In this document: positions 2,194 through 10,178 of the stretch, in pieces
Position numbering within the stretch: position 1 is the first letter of the stretch
How the letters are laid out: the number at the start of each line of letters is the position of its first letter
Source of the DNA: a virus
DNA: 10,402 nucleotides
Virus genome (UHGV): UHGV-0126656
Direction: 5' to 3' (one strand)
Notes under the pieces: model-generated
The model's input: only the letters and a program-made list of their open reading frames with translations
What the model was told of the DNA's origin: nothing
Database searches by the model: none
Made by a program: the position numbers and the translations under genes

Positions 2194-4398
2194 TTAACGC
2201 CGCCGTGGTTGTAACATGCCTCCAGGTCTTTGCGACTCGCGCTGCATCAGGCGCATTGCTGTGTTTTCTATAGTCTGTTGCAACGCTTTTGAGTCGTCTT
2301 CAGTCCAGCCGTTTGTCGCCTGGATGTTGTTTGTTACGTTCAGTGTGATGCCGCCACCACTGCCAACCAGATCGCGGCCCGGTGTAACTCGTCCACCCTC
2401 GCCGGGGATCATGTACTGTTTCCCGCCAGTAGAGGTAAATAACTCAGGGACACCGTGCTCACCAACCCTGTAAAGATTGCCACCGTTAACCGCGCCGCCG
2501 TTGTAGCGACCACCGCCAAACAAGCCAGTAATGCCAGCCATCAAGGCGCTGATAGCTGACATTGCGACCATCGGGGCCGTCCCCATTGTCGCGGTAGCTG
2601 TCGCCGCTGCTGCCGGGGCCATTGATGATGCGATTGATGCGCCTGTTGCCGCTGCTGTTGCCGCTTGTCCGCTCATTGCGCTGGCGCTGGCTGCCTCGCT
2701 TAAGATCATTTGTTTGACGTATTCAGCGCCCATCTCAGCGATACTTCCCACCACTTTTCCGAGAATGGTAGTCCCGATATTGGCGAAAGCGGTTTCCAGG
2801 TTCTGCGTACCATTAAGCAGGCCGACAACGGCATTTGTAGCGCCACCACTCAGGCCATCAGCCATGTCACCAATCAGGCCATTAATCCCACCTTGCGCCC
2901 GGAATTGTTCCCACTGCGAGGCAAGCAATTCTTCTGCGTGCTGTTGTTTAAGCGCGTTTAGCGTTTCCTCGTTAATCATCTGTTTGTTGAATAGCTCATC
3001 AGCCTGTTGCATTTCAAGGGCATGGCGTTGTTTGAGCGCATCAACGGGATTAAATTGCTCATTAAGCTGTTTTGCTTTTTCTTCCAGTTCGATTTGATGC
3101 TCACGCGCGGCGTTTGTTTCGTAAATCAGGTGCGCAAGGTTTTTCATCTCACTAACCTGTTTTGCCGTTGCGTTAGCGCCCATTTCCTGAACGGCGTCCC
3201 ACATTTCAGCCTCTTTGCTACCCTCAGCAAAGCCCTGGTTAAGTCGTTCCAGTTCTGCGCGTTTCCGTTTCAGCGCTTCTTCTGCCGGATCTTTCTGCGC
3301 GCGTTTCGGTTTATTGCCACCTCCACCGCCATTGTCTTTCAGCTTAATATCAGTGGTGGCCTGCTGTGTCGGTAGCGTTGACACAAAACCCGTAGATTGA
3401 TTGTCTGGCGCTGCGCCTAAGAAGTCGGTTTGTTTGGCTTGAGCGCGGAATAAATCAAGGCCCGGCACAAACGGCTCAAAGGCTGCGGCAAGTGTCCATA
3501 ACTTATCAGCCAATGACGCAGAATCAGATTTCAGCGTTTTAAACCAGCCGGATAGCTCGCGGCAATAATCAGCCAGCGTTTTAATACCGCGACCGACCAG
3601 TTCAGTAACATGCAGCGTCTGGTCGATGGTTTCCAGTAACAGGCTAAAATTTGTTGATAGCTCTGTCATTGCCTGTTCCGTGGTTGTCGGCAGCTTGTTA
3701 AATTCTTTTTCGATTTCGCCTGATCCTTTCAGGATTGCATTTACTACATCCTCAGCCGTCAGTTTGCCATCCAACATGCGGCGACGTAGCTCACCCATTG
3801 AGATCCCCATCTGACTTGCTACGCGCCGCCATAGCTCCGGCATACCCTCCAGGATGCTGTTAAATTCCTCAGCACGGACAATACCGCCGTTAATAGATTG
3901 CCCTAACTGTCGCAAGGCGTTTGCGGCTTCTTCGGATGAACTACCACCAATACGCCCGATCTGCTGTAGTGTCTCTGTCAACTGTAAGATCTGGCCCCCG
4001 GTAGCGTTTGCATCAGACAAAGCTGAAGTAAGGCTTTCCCATAACTTAGTAGTATCCTCAATCTTCATGCCAGTTCGCTTGCTGATCTCAAGAATGCCGC
4101 TAAAATTAGCCTTAGCTTCAACCAGACTACCGGATAGCCGGGATACACGGGCGCGTAGTAGTTTTACGTTGTCCGCGATTTCAATAAAGCGTTTAGCCGC
4201 CATCATTAGCAGGCCAACGTTAACCGCCGCCGCCAGTTTGCTGATTGTCGTATTCAGTTTGTTGATTGAGTTATCAGCGCGCTTTGCGCCGCGTTCAATG
4301 CGATCGAATGCGTCGTCAGCTTGTTTCCCTGCGGTTAATAGCTTCCCTGTGCGCGCATCAACCTCATAATAAATTCTACCTACGTTTGTGTTACTCAT
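2194..4398 (-). CDS. Phage tail tape-measure-like protein (734 aa)
   Basis: Long, mostly helical protein with an N-terminal region typical of tape-measure domains (GMPELWRRVASQMGISMGELRRRMLDGKLTAEDVVNAI), a Gly run (GGGGGNKPKR), a coiled-coil middle, a C-terminal Ala/Gly/Thr/Ser-rich hydrophobic stretch and a Gly-rich tail (LYRVGEHGVPELFTSTGGKQYMIPGEGG). Classification is by resemblance; no search was run. Confidence 0.75.
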   Translation of the reverse strand: MSNTNVGRIYYEVDARTGKLLTAGKQADDAFDRIERGAKRADNSINKLNTTISKLAAAVNVGLLMMAAKRFIEIADNVKLLRARVSRLSGSLVEAKANFSGILEISKRTGMKIEDTTKLWESLTSALSDANATGGQILQLTETLQQIGRIGGSSSEEAANALRQLGQSINGGIVRAEEFNSILEGMPELWRRVASQMGISMGELRRRMLDGKLTAEDVVNAILKGSGEIEKEFNKLPTTTEQAMTELSTNFSLLLETIDQTLHVTELVGRGIKTLADYCRELSGWFKTLKSDSASLADKLWTLAAAFEPFVPGLDLFRAQAKQTDFLGAAPDNQSTGFVSTLPTQQATTDIKLKDNGGGGGNKPKRAQKDPAEEALKRKRAELERLNQGFAEGSKEAEMWDAVQEMGANATAKQVSEMKNLAHLIYETNAAREHQIELEEKAKQLNEQFNPVDALKQRHALEMQQADELFNKQMINEETLNALKQQHAEELLASQWEQFRAQGGINGLIGDMADGLSGGATNAVVGLLNGTQNLETAFANIGTTILGKVVGSIAEMGAEYVKQMILSEAASASAMSGQAATAAATGASIASSMAPAAAATATATMGTAPMVAMSAISALMAGITGLFGGGRYNGGAVNGGNLYRVGEHGVPELFTSTGGKQYMIPGEGGRVTPGRDLVGSGGGITLNVTNNIQATNGWTEDDSKALQQTIENTAMRLMQRESQRPGGMLQPRRR

Positions 4399-4640
4399 GT
4401 CCTGTATATCCGCGTTGTGCGGATACCTCCGATTGTTCTTTACTCTAATAATTCCGCCATGAAACAGTTTATTGCCGCTTCAGTGACTTCGTGTTCAGGT
4501 TTGCTTCAACCAATCACAAAAAACATCGTTTAATAGAATCAATGGCTTATAAAGCTGTATCAGCTATGCTTCTTTGTCAAAGCCACTGAAAATCAAGTTT
4601 TCCCAATGAAATCAATGCTGATATACATCCATATCGTTTT

Positions 4641-4657
4641 TAACGTAATGTACGTTA
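4641..4657. promoter_or_regulatory. Perfect 7-3-7 palindrome TAACGTA-ATG-TACGTTA (candidate operator)
   Basis: Read directly in the 290 bp gap between the 76-aa gene and the tape-measure-like gene; shape fits a dimeric HTH regulator binding site. Confidence 0.35.
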
Positions 4658-4687
4658 TGCGCACTGCGGGAAACGTACTGGATTTAT

Positions 4688-4918
4688 TTACTGGTCGCCG
4701 TTCAGTTCATGCAGAGTCTGTTCTGGCAATGAATCCAGCCAGTTTTCTGCATCCTCCCTGTAACACTCCAGGATGCAACGGTTTGTGAAGTTGATGAAAG
4801 CGGTCAGTGATTCTGCTTCGTAGTTCCTGTGCGCTCTTCTGGCCTGCTTACGTAGTTGTTTCGCTTCTGCCCGCTGGCCTTCGAGTATCTCCAGCCTGTC
4901 TGCAATATCTTGCTTCAT
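4688..4918 (-). CDS. Hypothetical small protein (76 aa)
   Basis: ATG at 4918 with a GAGGAG Shine-Dalgarno 6 nt upstream; 38 nt from the stop of the upstream gene. Charged, helical; no family recognised. Confidence 0.55.
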   Translation of the reverse strand: MKQDIADRLEILEGQRAEAKQLRKQARRAHRNYEAESLTAFINFTNRCILECYREDAENWLDSLPEQTLHELNGDQ

Positions 4919-4956
4919 GTTCAGCTCCTCGCGCGCGCATAGTACTTGTCCGAAAA

Positions 4957-5331
4957 TTAATCGCCCGTCCCATCATTAATATCGATTCCCACGCTGTGCA
5001 ACTGGCTATGAATGTCTCTGCGAATGAGAATTAAACGCCTGATGAACTCCATTTCCTCCGCGATCTGGTTGCTCGGCCCCGATTTCATGTCGATGATTTT
5101 ATTGATAGTTCCAAGCGAATATTCAGCCCACAGACGAAGCGTTTGGCGCTTCATGGCCTGTTTGCTCAGTGGCGAATGTTTCAGGTCTAAGACATGTTCT
5201 GCGAGGGTCTTAGCGATGCCCTGCATGATGCGTAGTGCCAACATGATGATTTTCTCCGGACTTGTGCTAATATAGTTCCCGAACATTGTTCCGAGACTGC
5301 TTATCCTGTTTGTCTTGTCCGATTTGTTCAT
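4957..5331 (-). CDS. Hypothetical protein (124 aa)
   Basis: ORF in the operon on the same strand; ATG at 5331 with a weak Shine-Dalgarno, preceded by an intergenic hairpin at 5350..5369. No family recognised. Confidence 0.5.
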   Translation of the reverse strand: MNKSDKTNRISSLGTMFGNYISTSPEKIIMLALRIMQGIAKTLAEHVLDLKHSPLSKQAMKRQTLRLWAEYSLGTINKIIDMKSGPSNQIAEEMEFIRRLILIRRDIHSQLHSVGIDINDGTGD

Positions 5332-5382
5332 TGGTCACATTGTTAAGTCAGCCGGGGTAATTCCCGGCTTTCTTTTATCCGA

Positions 5383-5925
5383 TCAGTACCGAATCCCTAT
5401 CGCATTGAATACGCGTTTCCGTTGCTCAGCTTCAGGATCGGCGGCCATTTCTGGTTCTGGCTCCGGCATAGACGGGGCGGCATCAAAATGCTCAATTTCA
5501 CGACCGAAATACGAGTTCAGGACAATACCTGCCGAACTATCCACTCCATCAAAATAGCGACGCTGTTCCTCGGTGAGACAGCTACCCAGACGTTCCTCAA
5601 CCTGCGCCATAAACTCAGCATCCGGTGAGAAGTACTCATCCGGAGTCGGAGCACCGCTCTGTTTGTGCATCTCCATTTTCTCTGCGTTCGTTTTCAGCCC
5701 GGCAATGCGTTTCTCCAGTCCGGCGGCTTTAATAGCGTCAGCAACGATTTGTGGGATCTGCGGTTTAATTGTTTCGATAACTTCATTGCTGATTAATTTA
5801 AACTGGGCCATACGGATCGCTTTAATCTGCTTATTTAACAGTGCGCGTTCCCCTTCGTTGGCGGTTTTATCACGCTGTGCTACCAGTTCATCGCCTTTGT
5901 TTGTCAGTACATCAAATGCGTCCAT
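5383..5925 (-). CDS. Hypothetical acidic protein (180 aa)
   Basis: ATG at 5925 with a GGAGGAG Shine-Dalgarno and 8 nt spacer; starts 17 nt after the stop of the upstream gene. Acidic, Pro/Glu-rich C-terminal segment (MPEPEPEMAADPEAEQ). A tail assembly chaperone or scaffold-like role is speculation only. Confidence 0.6.
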   Translation of the reverse strand: MDAFDVLTNKGDELVAQRDKTANEGERALLNKQIKAIRMAQFKLISNEVIETIKPQIPQIVADAIKAAGLEKRIAGLKTNAEKMEMHKQSGAPTPDEYFSPDAEFMAQVEERLGSCLTEEQRRYFDGVDSSAGIVLNSYFGREIEHFDAAPSMPEPEPEMAADPEAEQRKRVFNAIGIRY

Positions 5926-5942
5926 TGTCTTTTCTCCTCCGA

Positions 5943-6269
5943 TTATTTAAAAGTGCTTATTGACACGCCGAAACGACGACTTAATTCAAAAAGGAGTCGC
6001 GCCTTTGCAGTGCCTTCCATGTCTTCCGGCATTTCAGACTGAAGTTTATCAGCTACTTCATCAACAAGTGGCCGAACCGTTTCCACGAACTTGTCCGCAA
6101 TATAATCAGCAGAACGCATCACTTTTTCCTGGAATTCCTCACGGCGTTCCTGGGCGGCTGATTTAGGGGCTGTCGTGCGCTGAAAATAACTGTCTAATGA
6201 ATGCATGGCATCTGCTCCTTTTACTTTGATTGATGTTATTTCTTTAATTGTGTTTGCTTTGATTTTCAT
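5943..6269 (-). CDS. Hypothetical small protein (108 aa; alternative 87-aa form starting at 6206)
   Basis: ORF directly downstream of alpA on the same strand. The internal ATG at 6204..6206 has the better Shine-Dalgarno (AAGGAG, 8 nt spacer), so the true start may be 6206. Confidence 0.55.
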   Translation of the reverse strand: MKIKANTIKEITSIKVKGADAMHSLDSYFQRTTAPKSAAQERREEFQEKVMRSADYIADKFVETVRPLVDEVADKLQSEMPEDMEGTAKARLLFELSRRFGVSISTFK

Positions 6270-6345
6270 GCTGCCTATTCCTTCAGAAATTGCGGTAGCT
6301 AGCTTTTTAAATCAATAGGTTATTTGATAATCTCAGTAGCTGTTT

Positions 6346-6537
6346 TCATTGGTGGCGAGCGCCTTTGTTTTTATAGAATTCCAAAATCTCAGATCGGATA
6401 AACTTAATTCGTGCACCGACCGGAGTAACCGGAACGGGCCAACCTTTAATCTTGTTAATCCAGCGGAATATAGTGCGTCGGGTAACGCCGAATAAAGCGG
6501 CTACCTCGTTCACCGTCATTAATTCGCTATCATTCAT
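6346..6537 (-). CDS. alpA: AlpA-family prophage regulatory protein / excisionase-like HTH (63 aa)
   Basis: Translation MTVNEVAALFGVTRRTIFRWI... is a typical AlpA/Xis-type helix-turn-helix. GAGGTGA Shine-Dalgarno 4 nt before the ATG. Sits where AlpA-like regulators are usually found in P4-integrase islands. Confidence 0.8.
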   Translation of the reverse strand: MNDSELMTVNEVAALFGVTRRTIFRWINKIKGWPVPVTPVGARIKFIRSEILEFYKNKGARHQ

Positions 6538-6556
6538 GTTCTCACCTCAAAAAGTA

Positions 6557-6590
6557 GCGGTGAGGAAAAATATGGGAAAACCCTCACCGC
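6557..6590 (-). promoter_or_regulatory. alpA leader stem-loop (9-bp stem) with U-run, overlapping anti-SD/SD logic
   Basis: Minus strand reads GCGGUGAGG-16 nt loop-CCUCACCGC-UACUUUUU, then the SD GAGGUGAG and AUG. The CCUCACC arm can pair with either the upstream arm or the alpA Shine-Dalgarno. Confidence 0.35.
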
Positions 6591-6729
6591 GCCCTGAATG
6601 AAATTAAAGACCAACATTACTGTTGATACTTAATATTATATTCCTCATGTCCCTGTTTCACATCTTTTACCATATAGGGAAAGGGGATATTCTGTAATGT
6701 TTACAAAACTTTTAATTAGCAAAAAATAA

Positions 6730-6758
6730 TTGCGCATCTCACGTAATACAGGGATAAT
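6730..6758 (+). promoter_or_regulatory. Candidate sigma70 promoter (TTGCGC-17 nt-GATAAT)
   Basis: -35-like TTGCGC (6730..6735) and -10 GATAAT (6753..6758) with 17 nt spacing, pointing toward the plus-strand terminator at 6825..6851. Confidence 0.3.
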
Positions 6759-6764
6759 ATTACT

Positions 6765-6851
6765 CAAGGGCTGGTAACCCTTACTCAAAATGTGATCTAT
6801 AACTACAACGATTGATTTCACTTCCCCGCTCTCTCCGGCGGGATTTTTTTT
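6765..6851 (+). ncRNA. Candidate small RNA (~85 nt), divergent from alpA
   Basis: Bounded by the candidate promoter and a strong intrinsic terminator. No ORF (ATG TGA only). Has a 5-prime stem-loop (AAGGG-CUGGUAA-CCCUU) and an AU-rich linker before the terminator. Confidence 0.3.
6825..6851 (+). terminator. Rho-independent terminator (plus strand)
   Basis: GC hairpin (CCCGC ... GCGGG, 6825..6842) followed by eight T (6844..6851). No plus-strand CDS lies upstream. Confidence 0.6.
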
Positions 6852-7971
6852 GCCTGCAATCACCACATCAAAACTAATTAAAATTAGATGCCGTTTAAAC
6901 GCAATATAACGCATTCTGACGGCCTTAATTTTTGGCAATGCATTTGCTCAGGTGTGATTAGATTGATTCGTCTGGCGTGGAATGGTGCGGCGGTAATATC
7001 AGATCTCAGCGTTCTGTGTGGCGATTCCTCAGCTCTGAGGAGTGGGCGTCCGTCATTCAGTCTCAGCACCTTGCTCAAACGAGATCGGCTGCGATGGCGT
7101 TGTAGGCCGCATTCTGTCGTTTAATGAGACGTGCCTGATTGGACAATCTGAAATCTGGTTGGTGAGACTATTCAGGCGAGACTGTTCAGCGGGGAAAGCG
7201 GCGCATGTCGATGAATCCATTCCTGGATTAATCGGCGTTGTTCCGGTGTCTGGTGAAAATTTAATGAAATCGCATCAATTATAATGCGTCTAAATCGCTC
7301 TGTGGCGACGTGAAGTTTTCAGGTAAGCAAGTGCGGTTATATGTGTTCATCGCGTTACAGGCACCATTCCGTTCGAATTTGGCACGGTCAGGATGGTTTG
7401 CGGTGGTCGGCGGCGGGGATAAACTTGCTTGAGTGGTCACCTCAGCCTGCTGTGCGTCGTGTGATGGTACTGTCTGCACCTGGCTATACGCTGCTTTGCT
7501 GCTGTTTCCTGTCTGGTCTGTATACGCGATAAAACCCATCGGCTTTACAGTGAGTGAGTTTTTTGCGCTTTGCTTTCCATTCGGTTTGCTTACTGCTGCT
7601 GTGTGTCTGTGCGGTAGCTCAGAAAGCTGTTGACGATAACCATCACTGCTAAGCCCGTCTTTTAAGCTGGCAATTGCTCGAAGCCTTCCGAAGGCCCACC
7701 AATAAGAAATCACCCTTTGAGATATACCGCGCTCCCCATGAACGAATGCCATGATGGTTTGTTGGTCTGCTGTTCAGGTTGTACGTGAGTGAATGGGCGT
7801 TTCCAGCTTGCTGGAAATGATTGCGCTAATCAGCATGGTTAATGCTCGCAACCAGCCGACCTATCAGGCGGCGAAATAATTCTTCTGTTTAACTCTAGGC
7901 GACTCTCTATGACCGACCGGGAGGCTAAAAAACTCCCGTCGCCTAGAATTCTTAATAGTAGAATTCTTACT

Positions 7972-8082
7972 CGGCAACTTTTGACCCACCCTAACGGCAA
8001 CTTTTGACCCACCAATAACGGCAACTTTTGACCCACCTGAAGGCATAAATTGACCCACCCTAACGGCAACTTTTTACCCACC
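7972..8082. repeat. Iteron array (about 5 direct repeats, 23-24 bp period), putative replication origin
   Basis: AACGGCAACTTTTGACCCACC repeats beginning 7972, 7993, 8017 and 8062, with a degenerate copy at 8041..8059. Flanked at 7944..7969 by two TAGAATTCTTA repeats and at 7918..7938 by a hairpin. Lies just downstream of the Rep-like gene and its terminator. Confidence 0.7.
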
Positions 8083-8137: not shown

Positions 8138-8665
8138 TTATTTCATGTTGTACGGCTTGAATAATAACTGGTATTCGTTGCACTCCCTTTCTGCCGATCC
8201 TGGTATATAGCCTTCAGTACGCTCAACAAGTTTGAAGTGGTTGACCAGACGATCGAGGCATTTTTTAACCGTGTTTTTTGATAGCCTGGCTCGTTTGTCG
8301 ATTGTTCCCCTACCAACCCTGCACCATCCCAACGGTGAGTTTTTGCCAGTACCAGCGAAGTAACAAAGAGCACGTAGCACAGCCTCGTCGTTGACTGTAT
8401 GTTCTTTCTCCCATCTTTCGTACAGTTTGCGGGGCAATACTTCATCAAGTCGGTTCAATGTGTCCAGGTAGCGCAGGTTGCCACGCCAGGCTTGCTCCTG
8501 CTGTTTTGCCTCGTGATGATCTGTTTCCTCGTGATTATCTGGCGTGTGTTCTTCGTGTTTAGTCTCTTCGTTTTTGGGTGCTTTATTCCGTAACTCGTTA
8601 ATTTTATTTAAAAATTGACGAACATCATTGTTTGTTTCTTGTTCTACTGCTAGCATATCAGACAT
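8138..8665 (-). CDS. Putative iteron-binding replication initiator, winged-helix (phage O N-terminal-like), 175 aa
   Basis: The ORF track starts at 8779, but the ATG at 8663..8665 (MSDMLAVEQ...) has an AAGGAG Shine-Dalgarno 8 nt upstream and is preferred. C-terminal segment (AVLRALCYFAGTGKNSPLGWCRVGRGTIDKRARLSKNTVKKCLDRLVNHF) resembles winged-HTH replication initiator domains; acidic His/Glu-rich N-terminal region. Function inferred from fold-like motif plus the adjacent iterons. Confidence 0.5.
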   Translation of the reverse strand: MSDMLAVEQETNNDVRQFLNKINELRNKAPKNEETKHEEHTPDNHEETDHHEAKQQEQAWRGNLRYLDTLNRLDEVLPRKLYERWEKEHTVNDEAVLRALCYFAGTGKNSPLGWCRVGRGTIDKRARLSKNTVKKCLDRLVNHFKLVERTEGYIPGSAERECNEYQLLFKPYNMK

Positions 8666-8839
8666 GAGAAATTCTCCTTTAGCTTGTTTCTCATACCGCC
8701 CCCGGAATGTTGCAGCATGCCGGGGGCTTTTATTTGTGTTGATCCTATTTTCGAACTCTGGATCTTTCGTTGCAAACATGGATTTAAGTTCTTGATATTG
8801 AATAATTTATTCCACTTAATTGGAATAATGGAATAATTA

Positions 8840-8969: not shown

Positions 8970-10178
8970 TCATTCCGGTTCTAGAGGATTGCCGTTACCT
9001 GCCAATATTGAATCAATAGCGTCGGCGTAATCCTGCATCATTGCTCGCCGTTGCTTCAGGTAGGCCGCCTGGTTATAAATCGCCCTGATTCCCTTTGGAA
9101 CATGGGCCAATTGGATTTCGACCCAATCAGGGTTATACCTGCCGGATTCGTTAAGCGCCGTGCTGAATGTTGTGCGCCAGCCGTGGCCTGTAACCGTCGA
9201 TTTGAATCCGATACGCTCCAGGGCTTTAAGGATGGCACTGGCTGAAAGTGGCTTATCCATGAATCGACCAGGGAACACAAAAGCACTGTATCCGCTGCGG
9301 GTAAACTGGTCCTGTAATAGCTCGACCGCCTGCCGGGATAGCGGGACCACATGCGGGCGGCGGGCCTTCATGACTTCAGCGGGTAGGGTGATGGTTGCCG
9401 ATTCCAGATCTACCCACTCCCAGCGCATTAAACGCAGTTCTGCGGTCCTTAGGGCGCTTAATATAAGCAAACGTATTGCCGTCTGAATCTGAACGCTCCC
9501 GGCTCTCTCAAGGGCTTTGTAGAAGGCCGGGATTTCACTAATTTGCAGCCATGCGTTATGACCTGGGCGTCTGGCTTTCAATGCCGTGTCCAGATCTGCA
9601 ACCGGATTTCTGCTAACCAGTTCGGTGATAACGGCAAATTTGAAGATCTCCCCGATACGCTGGCGTAATTTCCTGGCCTGTTCCGGTGCGGTGCGCTCTT
9701 TCTTCTGAAGCAATGCCAGTACGTCACGGGCGGTTATATCAACGATTGAACGTTTTCCCAGCACGGTGTAAACATCTTTCTCTAGTGCCGATCTGACCTG
9801 CTTTGTATAGCTCTCACTCCAACCGCTCACTCTGGTAGCAAACCAGTCTTCCGCTACCGTCTTAAAACTTGCCGCCATGTTGAGCGCATCAATGGCTTTC
9901 TCCTTGCGCGCTTCTTCCATTGGGTCAATTCCCTGGGCGATGAGTAAACGGCTCTCTGTGGCGCGTTTACGTGCTTCCTTCAAGGTAATCAGCGGATATA
10001 CCCCAATAGCCTGTAACCGCTCTTTCTTGTCTATCCAGTACCGGAATCGCCAGTATTTGCTGCCATTGGGATGCACCAGCAAGAACAGGCCAGGTGTCTG
10101 TGAATCGGTGAGTTTGTAGGGCTTGTCCTTCGGCTGGGCGGCCTCTATGCCCTTTGCTGTCAGTGGTGTCTTGCTCAA
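8970..10178 (-). CDS. int: Tyrosine recombinase, P4-type phage integrase (402 aa)
   Basis: N-terminal arm-binding signature (PYKLTDSQTPGLFLLVHPNGSKYWRFRYW) and C-terminal catalytic region (HGWRTTFSTALNESG ... VEIQLAHVPKGIRAIYNQAAYLKQRRAMMQDYAD) characteristic of P4-family integrases. Start codon is TTG at 10176..10178 with a GAGGT Shine-Dalgarno 8 nt upstream. Confidence 0.9.
   Translation of the reverse strand: MSKTPLTAKGIEAAQPKDKPYKLTDSQTPGLFLLVHPNGSKYWRFRYWIDKKERLQAIGVYPLITLKEARKRATESRLLIAQGIDPMEEARKEKAIDALNMAASFKTVAEDWFATRVSGWSESYTKQVRSALEKDVYTVLGKRSIVDITARDVLALLQKKERTAPEQARKLRQRIGEIFKFAVITELVSRNPVADLDTALKARRPGHNAWLQISEIPAFYKALERAGSVQIQTAIRLLILSALRTAELRLMRWEWVDLESATITLPAEVMKARRPHVVPLSRQAVELLQDQFTRSGYSAFVFPGRFMDKPLSASAILKALERIGFKSTVTGHGWRTTFSTALNESGRYNPDWVEIQLAHVPKGIRAIYNQAAYLKQRRAMMQDYADAIDSILAGNGNPLEPE

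Follow-up and report, generated by a model that had tools for sequence, protein, structure and literature searches.

The PR'-tR' region of phage lambda comprises a promoter, a short leader and an intrinsic terminator, which give a short default RNA (6S), and is controlled by Q antitermination. In P4, immunity rests on premature termination in the PLE leader, which is driven by CI RNA and lies next to an alpA/vis homolog. Here we describe a leader hairpin that invites comparison with both. It is found in UHGV virus genome UHGV-0126656, a stretch of 10,402 nucleotides referred to in its entirety as the window, and stands directly ahead of a gene for a small helix-turn-helix (HTH) protein that opens an operon on the minus strand. 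The element is best explained as a default-on attenuator of the intrinsic-terminator type, which would keep the operon behind it at a low level, a reading to which we give a probability of roughly 60%.

Further described systems bear on this comparison. Translation of kil/eta prevents premature termination in P4 (PMC10111431). In Pseudomonas aeruginosa, the target of AlpA is a leader terminator, and the protein binds to GGGACG in the stretch from -35 to -10 (PMC7969949), the whole binding element in this position being GGGACG-N5-GGTA. This AlpA is a Q-like, eight-helix protein of ~150 aa with an N-terminal ring segment and DNA contacts at residues 128-142, and the terminator on which it acts, tB, is a weak intrinsic terminator that needs NusA (PMC9371919). 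The AlpA protein of the Gram-negative satellite EcCICFT073 activates its own promoter, and helper phages induce alpA transcription by way of an inducer that was reported to be unidentified (PMC6092414).

Like lambda PR'-tR', the locus in the window presents a promoter-like block, a short leader and a terminator-type hairpin followed by a long one-directional operon with packaging and tail genes, but its promoter is weak, its hairpin has a 14-16-nt loop, the terminator abuts the Shine-Dalgarno (SD) sequence of a small HTH gene and no similarity to phage records was found. With P4 it has in common a satellite-type element silenced, as proposed here, by termination upstream of the main operon near an AlpA/Vis-like gene, as well as a leader open reading frame (ORF) across the termination region; it differs from P4 in having no C4/CI match, no seq repeats, a leader ORF without SD or conserved frame, unrelated genes and no primase. 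The resemblance to the lambda PR'-tR' and P4 leaders is thus limited to a short default RNA and an operon behind a terminator, and the defining signals of neither class were recognised in the element. The trp, pyrBI, T-box and riboswitch attenuators, which use an antiterminator helix, a sensing leader peptide or an aptamer, likewise place an intrinsic terminator behind the promoter and ahead of the first ribosome-binding site (RBS), but none of these three devices was found in the window leader.

The likeness to PalpB-tB of P. aeruginosa consists of a weak intrinsic terminator in the leader directly before the first ORF and of a GGGAC between -35 and -10 in the window promoter. However, the protein encoded here is a 63-aa HTH_17 protein, unrelated to AlpA of P. 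aeruginosa in size and architecture and without a match to the PDB AlpA entries, and the GGGAC(A) of the promoter spacer is replaced by GTGAC, GGGAA or GAAAA in relatives. A role of the HTH protein as a self-acting antiterminator of the AlpA type was rejected, since it is unrelated to the Q-like protein and GGGAC is not conserved; to judge by these comparisons, the shared name is a coincidence. EcCICFT073 is similar to the island in the window in that an integrase gene is followed by a small HTH gene heading a one-directional operon that needs a trigger, but the island family carries small terminase, HNH and tape-measure genes instead of pri-rep. BLASTP detected no similarity between the HTH protein and EcCICFT073 AlpA, and no hairpin with a U-run precedes the RBS in the EcCICFT073 alpA leader. 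The hairpin as a general feature of phage-inducible chromosomal islands was rejected on these two grounds.

The leader hairpin and its conservation

The leader and the start of the first gene contain the following features, given in the direction of transcription (type B is one of the leader versions described below).

6621..6676, minus strand: promoter-like block TATATGGTAAAAGATGTGAAACAGGGACATGAGGAATATAATATTAAGTATCAAC, with a -10-like TATAAT at 6640-6635 and no good -35
6612..6625, minus strand: HP1, a small 5'-proximal hairpin (CAACA, loop GUAA, UGUUG) predicted in both the minimum-free-energy (MFE) and the centroid structure
6534..6617, minus strand: upstream ORF of 27 codons, which crosses the hairpin, ends in an AUGA overlap with the HTH start and has no SD
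6591..6611, minus strand: A/U-rich single-stranded linker GUCUUUAAUUUCAUUCAGGGC between HP1 and the terminator hairpin, lacking in type B
6557..6590, minus strand: terminator-type hairpin with 5' arm GCGGUGAGGG (6590-6581), a 14-nt pyrimidine-rich loop and 3' arm UCCUCACCGC (6566-6557)
6549..6556, minus strand: U-run UACUUUUU (DNA TACTTTTT), on the 3' side of the hairpin only
6535..6548, minus strand: SD GAGGUGAG (DNA GAGGTGAG) at 6548-6541, spacer AAC and AUG (6537-6535) of the HTH gene

A preliminary description of the leader had reported a 9-bp stem with a 16-nt loop, a U-run and an SD upstream of the HTH gene, all of which is exact in the minus-strand sequence. Nine perfect pairs join the arms GCGGTGAGG (6590-6582) and CCTCACCGC (6565-6557) around a 16-nt loop (6581-6566); if a terminal G.U is counted, the arms become GCGGUGAGG(G) (6590-6581) and (U)CCUCACCGC (6566-6557), with 10 pairs and a 14-nt loop. 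Seven of the nine perfect pairs are G-C, a GC-rich stem as expected of intrinsic terminators. RNAfold retains the hairpin in the MFE structure as well as in the centroid, with an energy in the leader context of about -17 to -21 kcal/mol, and in the predicted ensemble of the read-through RNA of the window allele all stem pairs have a probability of 1.0. The U-run UACUUUUU contains 6 U in 8 positions and is broken by AC (UAC ahead of UUUUU). When the palindrome is read on the plus strand, no T-run follows it, and the space between U-run and SD is too short for a promoter.

Typical intrinsic terminators have a stem of about 5-14 bp, a loop of 3-8 nt and a U-tract directly 3' of the stem. A standard terminator scan of the window did not list the leader hairpin because it allows loops of 3-8 nt only. 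In a relaxed scan of both strands of the whole 10.4-kb window, with a minimum of 8 perfect pairs, loops between 3 and 25 nt and no fewer than 5 T among the 9 nt that follow, two sites were found including the leader hairpin, as compared with a mean of 0.19 per window in 100 dinucleotide-preserving shuffles. The upstream genes intZ and yffL have canonical short-loop terminators of their own (8868-8853 and 8130-8110, respectively), and therefore the leader hairpin is not simply theirs.

Conservation was followed in homologues of the HTH protein and their contigs, in E. coli records and in one metagenome pattern scan. The 650 bp around the leader are present in 189-195 of 5426 complete E. coli genomes, once per genome and always in the chromosome, and about 140 of them contain the whole region. 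Relatives of the HTH gene, with 72-92% amino-acid identity, show the same leader layout in three versions: type A, represented by the window (9 distinct sequences), type B (6 distinct sequences) and type C. Common to all three are a GC stem, a large loop of 78-96% pyrimidine, a U-run and then GAGGU, with the AUG 5-7 nt later. The sequences that fill this layout are different, the arms being GCGGUGAGGG and UCCUCACCGC in type A, CCGCCUCCAGG and CCUGGGGGCGG in type B, and CCACCAG and CUGGUGG in type C, for which a second 5' arm GCCGCUAGG pairing with CCUGGUGGC is possible; the U-run of type B reads UUCUUUUU and that of type C GAUCUUUUUUUU. Eight of the 9 distinct type A sequences have an unchanged stem, with 1-nt indels in the loop; in the ninth (L027) the stem is altered twice, from A-U to G.U and from G.U to G-C, and pairing is preserved both times. 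Types B and C have a homologous stretch that reaches from the second (3') half of the loop, with the common 12-mer UUCCUCUUUCUU, over the 3' arm and the U-run to the SD, and their stems differ in one pair by a double change from U.G to A-U. All three types include G.U pairs, and in the complementary strand or at the DNA level these would turn into A.C mismatches; together with a U-run on the 3' side only, this argues that the constraint acts on the sense RNA. What is observed, then, is a structure in a fixed position and an architecture conserved with pair-preserving changes, and the comparison indicates that hairpin and U-run form a real terminator-type element that is evolutionarily maintained.

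The surroundings of the hairpin vary between versions. HP1 keeps its stem in type A variants in which the loop changes from AGTAAT to TGTGAT, and in type B its place is taken by another HP1, in which one compensatory change from C-G to U-A and one change from G.U to G-C are seen. The type C hairpin occupies a gap of 94 nt, flanked upstream by a Phage_AlpA-type ORF of 60-66 aa and downstream by the HTH gene; since no space for a promoter is left after the hairpin, expression of the operon has to rely on read-through. An example of type B in an O157:H7 island stands ahead of an unannotated and much more divergent 58-aa HTH ORF. This ORF (MKAITLEQFAAMANISTRTLRRWL...) is located behind the type B leader at 2953-3129 of locus L006 (E. 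coli O157:H7 PV15-279, NZ_AP018488), where RefSeq has no gene between an upstream hypothetical protein and an HNH endonuclease.

Upstream of the hairpin, types A and B have in common a promoter-like block of ~55 bp (TATATGGTAAAAGrTGTrAA..CAGGGA.AT..GGrATAwAATATT.A.TATCA), directly after which their leaders diverge completely; the block is lacking in type C. Apart from two metagenome copies, every variant has TATAAT or TAAAAT as its -10. The candidate -10 proposed in the preliminary description is therefore part of a block shared by two of the three leader versions, but a good -35 is missing, and a sigma-70 scan of the window called no promoter at the TATAAT block because of the poor -35. A promoter function of the block, with a start ~45 nt upstream of the hairpin, is plausible.

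Several points weigh against reading the element as an attenuator. The -35 is not recognisable, and the two exceptional metagenome copies have TATAAC in place of TATAAT. The loop, with 14-16 nt in the window and 22-38 nt in types B and C, is longer than the 3-8 nt of a typical intrinsic terminator, and the U-run is interrupted, so the efficiency of termination may be low. Formal covariation statistics are weak because the stems are nearly invariant within each leader type, the terminator core of type B being wholly invariant; the sole compensatory pair in type B sits in HP1 and not in the terminator, and it was matched by 154 of 500 shuffles. Moreover, the three leader types represent few lineages of one family restricted to E. 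coli. The case for an RNA structure rests on an architecture that was kept while the sequence was replaced, not on covariation statistics.

In the mechanism that we propose, transcripts would probably start a few bases after TATAAT (6640-6635) and fold HP1 (6625-6612), which is followed by the A/U-rich linker. Next, the GC-rich hairpin (6590-6557) would form ahead of UACUUUUU, and it would do so by default since the leader has no alternative fold that holds either arm. A substantial fraction of polymerases would then release an RNA of ~80 nt that ends directly before the SD. Only read-through transcripts would carry the RBS, with an SD that is predicted to be reasonably free in the window allele. 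The large pyrimidine-rich loop and the two non-U bases between stem and U-run suggest that the terminator is leaky or factor-assisted rather than strong. We infer the transcript start, the actual termination and a regulated read-through from this arrangement.

Competing explanations

The alternative that survives best elaborates the attenuator reading and does not exclude it. A helper-phage or island factor would load on the polymerase at the promoter, or bind the conserved pyrimidine-rich loop, and open the packaging and tail genes as a factor-dependent antitermination gate after the manner of phage late-promoter modules such as lambda PR'-tR' or P. aeruginosa PalpB-tB, which we consider possible but unlikely. 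The layout fits, with a weak conserved promoter, a short leader, a terminator and a long operon that in relatives includes small terminase, HNH and tape-measure genes. In addition, the block from the promoter to +8 was kept between types A and B as the rest of the leader was replaced, and types B and C, despite their different 5' arms, have one and the same loop 12-mer UUCCUCUUUCUU. Weak terminators are typical targets of such factors, as illustrated by the NusA requirement of tB (PMC9371919), and the induction of EcCICFT073 alpA by helper phages offers a parallel (PMC6092414). On the other hand, protein family searches recognised no antiterminator gene in the island. A conserved hexamer, TATCAA or TATCAC, begins 11-12 bp after the start of the -10 and is thus placed like a sigma70-dependent pause element, but it does not have the critical final T (T6) of the lambda and PalpB pause elements. 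The GGGAC motif, as described above, is not conserved, and AlpA of P. aeruginosa is unrelated and larger.

Searches for signals of described antitermination systems agree with these points. The boxA-like GGUCUUUAA in the linker differs from boxA GCUCUUUAA by one mismatch, and the 5 such matches in the window, where 3.0 would be expected, put it at chance level; a route through rrn or lambda N boxA/nut was rejected, as the sequence is also lacking in types B and C. The RfaH ops element GGCGGTAGnnTG has no match in the leader at up to 2 mismatches. No Q-binding element and no Q gene were found, although the element is not recognisable without a known Q protein. Rfam yielded no family at the leader when the window and four related loci were searched at E <= 1, including the C4/CI family of P4 and P1, and no P4-like seqA/seqB/seqC complementary repeats were detected in 4600-7400 beyond short chance pairs. 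A P4-like CI RNA was rejected on account of both results. The phage collection contained neither a DNA match nor a protein match, and a pattern scan of viral contigs returned chance-level matches only.

A more far-reaching version of the gate is rather unlikely. According to it, an undescribed E. coli satellite family with integrase, HTH, HNH, small terminase and tape-measure genes, located at the CPZ-55 eutA/eutB site and elsewhere, would sense a helper phage at the leader hairpin, in that a helper or island factor without homology to Q, N, put, RfaH or P4 recognises the promoter block or the loop UUCCUCUUUCUU and turns the 80-nt terminated leader into operon transcription.

It is improbable that the element acts mainly as a translational switch, in which the pyrimidine-rich 3' arm or the loop would be an anti-SD that masks the RBS of the read-through RNA. 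The preliminary description had noted that the 3' arm is complementary to both the 5' arm and the SD, which for the SD is literally true over 6 nt (CUCACC with GGUGAG), and had derived from this two mutually exclusive pairings. For the window allele, folding does not bear out such a balanced switch. Pairing of the 3' arm with the SD appears only once the 5' arm is artificially barred from pairing, and it makes the fold 8.5 kcal/mol less stable (-26.6 versus -35.1); in the ensemble fold of the window leader no segment is complementary to either arm as an upstream antiterminator and no competing fold appears. The terminator stem is likewise predicted to win in the read-through RNA of type B. Only in type C, with its weak stem, does the MFE structure of the read-through RNA engage the SD, together with the AUG and codons 2-3, in pairs with the CU-rich loop and the 3' arm, leaving the SD with an unpaired probability of ~0. 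Of the attenuation or translational control suggested at the outset for the tape-measure operon, the first is consistent with a conserved terminator-type hairpin that occurs with three stem versions in the leader of the first gene, whereas RBS masking is predicted to prevail in type C alone. The duplicated SD-like sequence exists insofar as GGUGAG is common to the 5' arm and the SD of the window, but leader types differ in which arm resembles the SD: in the window it is the 5' arm, in types B and C the 3' arm.

The loops themselves, with their high pyrimidine content, form predicted duplexes of -5 to -12 kcal/mol with the purine-rich RBS; however, between 0.26 and 0.75 of shuffled loops of the same composition do at least as well. 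Covariation in a loop-RBS pseudoknot was rejected, as base composition explains it, and any anti-RBS role of the loop would operate through base composition and not through a specific register. A translational switch would also leave the conserved U-run unexplained. For the window, the modelled folds favour a default-on leader terminator over a balanced terminator/SD switch.

Attenuation coupled to a leader peptide is quite improbable. In this scenario a ribosome on the upstream ORF (6617-6534) would traverse the hairpin, prevent termination and pass on to the HTH gene at the AUGA. An ORF of 25-34 codons, with its ATG a few bases past the putative start site, does span the hairpin in all type A and B leaders, and P4 kil/eta provides a precedent (PMC10111431). 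Yet the ORF has no SD, type C has no ORF across the hairpin, and 1-nt indels change the frame after the loop among near-identical relatives. The stop is either a UGA inside the SD (L004, L005 and L032) or lies in the AUGA overlap, and in L033 the ORF continues in frame into the HTH gene. Such ORFs would be open by chance because pyrimidine-rich loops and GC stems are stop-free and two of three frames reach the UGA at the SD or the AUGA. The upstream ORF is probably not functional, and a leader peptide as regulator was rejected since its frame is not conserved and it lacks an SD.

Very improbable is that a small RNA (sRNA) is the main product, with the ~80-nt terminated leader acting in trans and operon expression being secondary. 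Type A does have the architecture of a typical Hfq-type sRNA (HP1, A/U linker, terminator hairpin and U tail), and the locus is RNA-rich in that a second, divergent sRNA-like gene is its neighbour; but the body of the RNA is not kept between types A and B, the type C hairpin follows an ORF without a separate transcript, and the conserved feature is the position of the hairpin before the RBS, with no Rfam match.

Least probable of all is an element at the DNA level, with the inverted repeat serving as operator of the HTH protein or of some other regulator, or a repeat without function. In favour of it, a perfect inverted repeat of 9 bp lies beside the gene of a small DNA-binding protein. Against it, the centres of the arms are separated by 25 bp, arms of three unrelated sequences stand before closely related proteins, bases that form G.U pairs in the RNA would not match in DNA, the conserved U-run is one-sided, 0.19 sites per window are expected by chance and the hairpin is no dispersed repeat but occupies one place per genome.

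The island and its neighbouring genes

The window comprises a whole integrative island, inserted between eutB and eutA at the CPZ-55 site of E. coli. Its gene order, all on the minus strand, is intZ, yffL, a decayed gene, the HTH gene, four small ORFs without annotated function and a tape-measure homolog, and the operon extends from the HTH gene through the small ORFs to the tape-measure homolog. The main genes are:

8970-10178, minus strand: intZ
8138-8779, minus strand: yffL
6346..6537, minus strand: HTH gene, 63 aa, excisionase/AlpA-like, first in the operon (Pfam HTH_17)
2194-4398, minus strand: tape-measure homolog, 734 aa, full-length (Pfam TMP_3, PHROG 1538)

The HTH protein matches Pfam HTH_17 with E = 4.4e-9, scores just under the cut-off of NCBIfam TIGR01764 'excise' and falls into PHROG 66, 'excisionase and transcriptional regulator'; RefSeq annotates the gene as a helix-turn-helix transcriptional regulator. 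By these family assignments the product is an excisionase-like HTH_17 protein. The name alpA used for the gene in the preliminary description is a loose label, given the lack of BLASTP similarity to EcCICFT073 AlpA and of any relation to P. aeruginosa AlpA.

Relatives of the island additionally encode an HNH endonuclease and an Sf6-type small terminase, the gene of which is missing from the window copy. The tape-measure homolog matches PHROG 1538 over 3-805 of 811 and is found in a 10-kb integrase island without other tail or capsid genes (relatives L027-L034 were compared). The island family looks satellite-like and may be an undescribed type of satellite; no description of it was found in the literature searched, and a literature search for CP-933Y found nothing. 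CPZ-55 of K-12 has only int-yffL and the right end in common with the window island, so K-12 transcriptome data are unusable here. A protein scan of representative genome contigs with the HTH protein retrieved distant HTH proteins only, presumably because the E. coli representative is K-12, which does not carry the module.

The gene upstream of the control region (window 7019-7931, minus strand) is frameshifted in the window's island type and is an annotated pseudogene in H1. It is intact in three relatives (L027 2902-3528, L028 1574-2455 and L033 2870-3490), with sub-threshold winged-HTH matches, and this winged-HTH-like gene is a possible regulator of the island. In the closest complete-genome copy (L001, E. 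coli 2018-18.25PC, NZ_AP023286, 11758-14265), two extra genes, for a hypothetical protein and an AIPR-family abortive-infection-type protein, lie between the small ORFs and the tape-measure gene; they are missing from the window and suggest a cargo or defence hotspot.

Divergent from the promoter block of the HTH gene, an sRNA-like gene is located at 6700-6851 on the plus strand, with a promoter-like TTTACA-16-AAAAAT (6700-6727) and a terminator consisting of CCCGCTCTCTCCGGCGGG followed by T8 (6825-6850); the putative RNA measures ~120 nt (6733-6851). Its 11 variants in relatives have the blocks GATAATATTA and CAAAATGTGATCTATAACTACAACGATT in common without change, and the middle hairpin occurs with four unrelated stems, AAGGG/CCCTT in the window (6768-6784) and GAGGAT/ATCCTC, GAGG/CCTC or AACACTA/TAGTGTT elsewhere. 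Rfam gave no significant family for this candidate, the only match being GcvB at E 0.7 and under the gathering score. A duplex between candidate and leader was equalled or surpassed in 193 of 300 shuffles, and the conserved seeds had no target in the window besides their own antisense and no match in phage records. Targeting of the leader by the candidate was rejected, as there is no complementarity beyond chance.

Other structured or repetitive features lie further away. An iteron-like tandem array (window 7972-8082) with 4.8 copies of the 23-bp unit CGGCAACTTTTGACCCACCCTAA is situated between the yffL terminator and the decayed gene and is also present in K-12 CPZ-55. The second strong hairpin with a T-run in the window (8698-8727, plus strand), GCCCCCGG..CCGGGGGC then TTTTATTTG, is antisense within the yffL coding region, and this 30-bp stretch is 93% identical to K-12 CPZ-55. 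A terminator-like hairpin on the plus strand only (5350-5369), AGCCGGGGTAATTCCCGGCT then TTCTTTTATC, falls in a 51-nt gap between two minus-strand genes of the operon; on the operon strand it has no U-run.

Relevance for the island family

The name AlpA covers at least three unrelated proteins, and a mechanism can therefore not be transferred by name from one system to another. Among Gram-negative satellites the question of the induction signal also arises for EcCICFT073, where the phage inducer of alpA was reported as unidentified (PMC6092414). If termination at the leader hairpin is confirmed, it would explain how the operon is silenced in an unstudied and fairly common E. coli island family, the window allele of which occurs by itself in about 140-190 of 5426 complete genomes, and the leader would serve as a compact, mutable reporter of 90 nt for finding the induction signal of the island. 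As a type of control, a terminator-type attenuator is ordinary; what it mainly offers is a handle on the regulation of an undescribed satellite-like island family.

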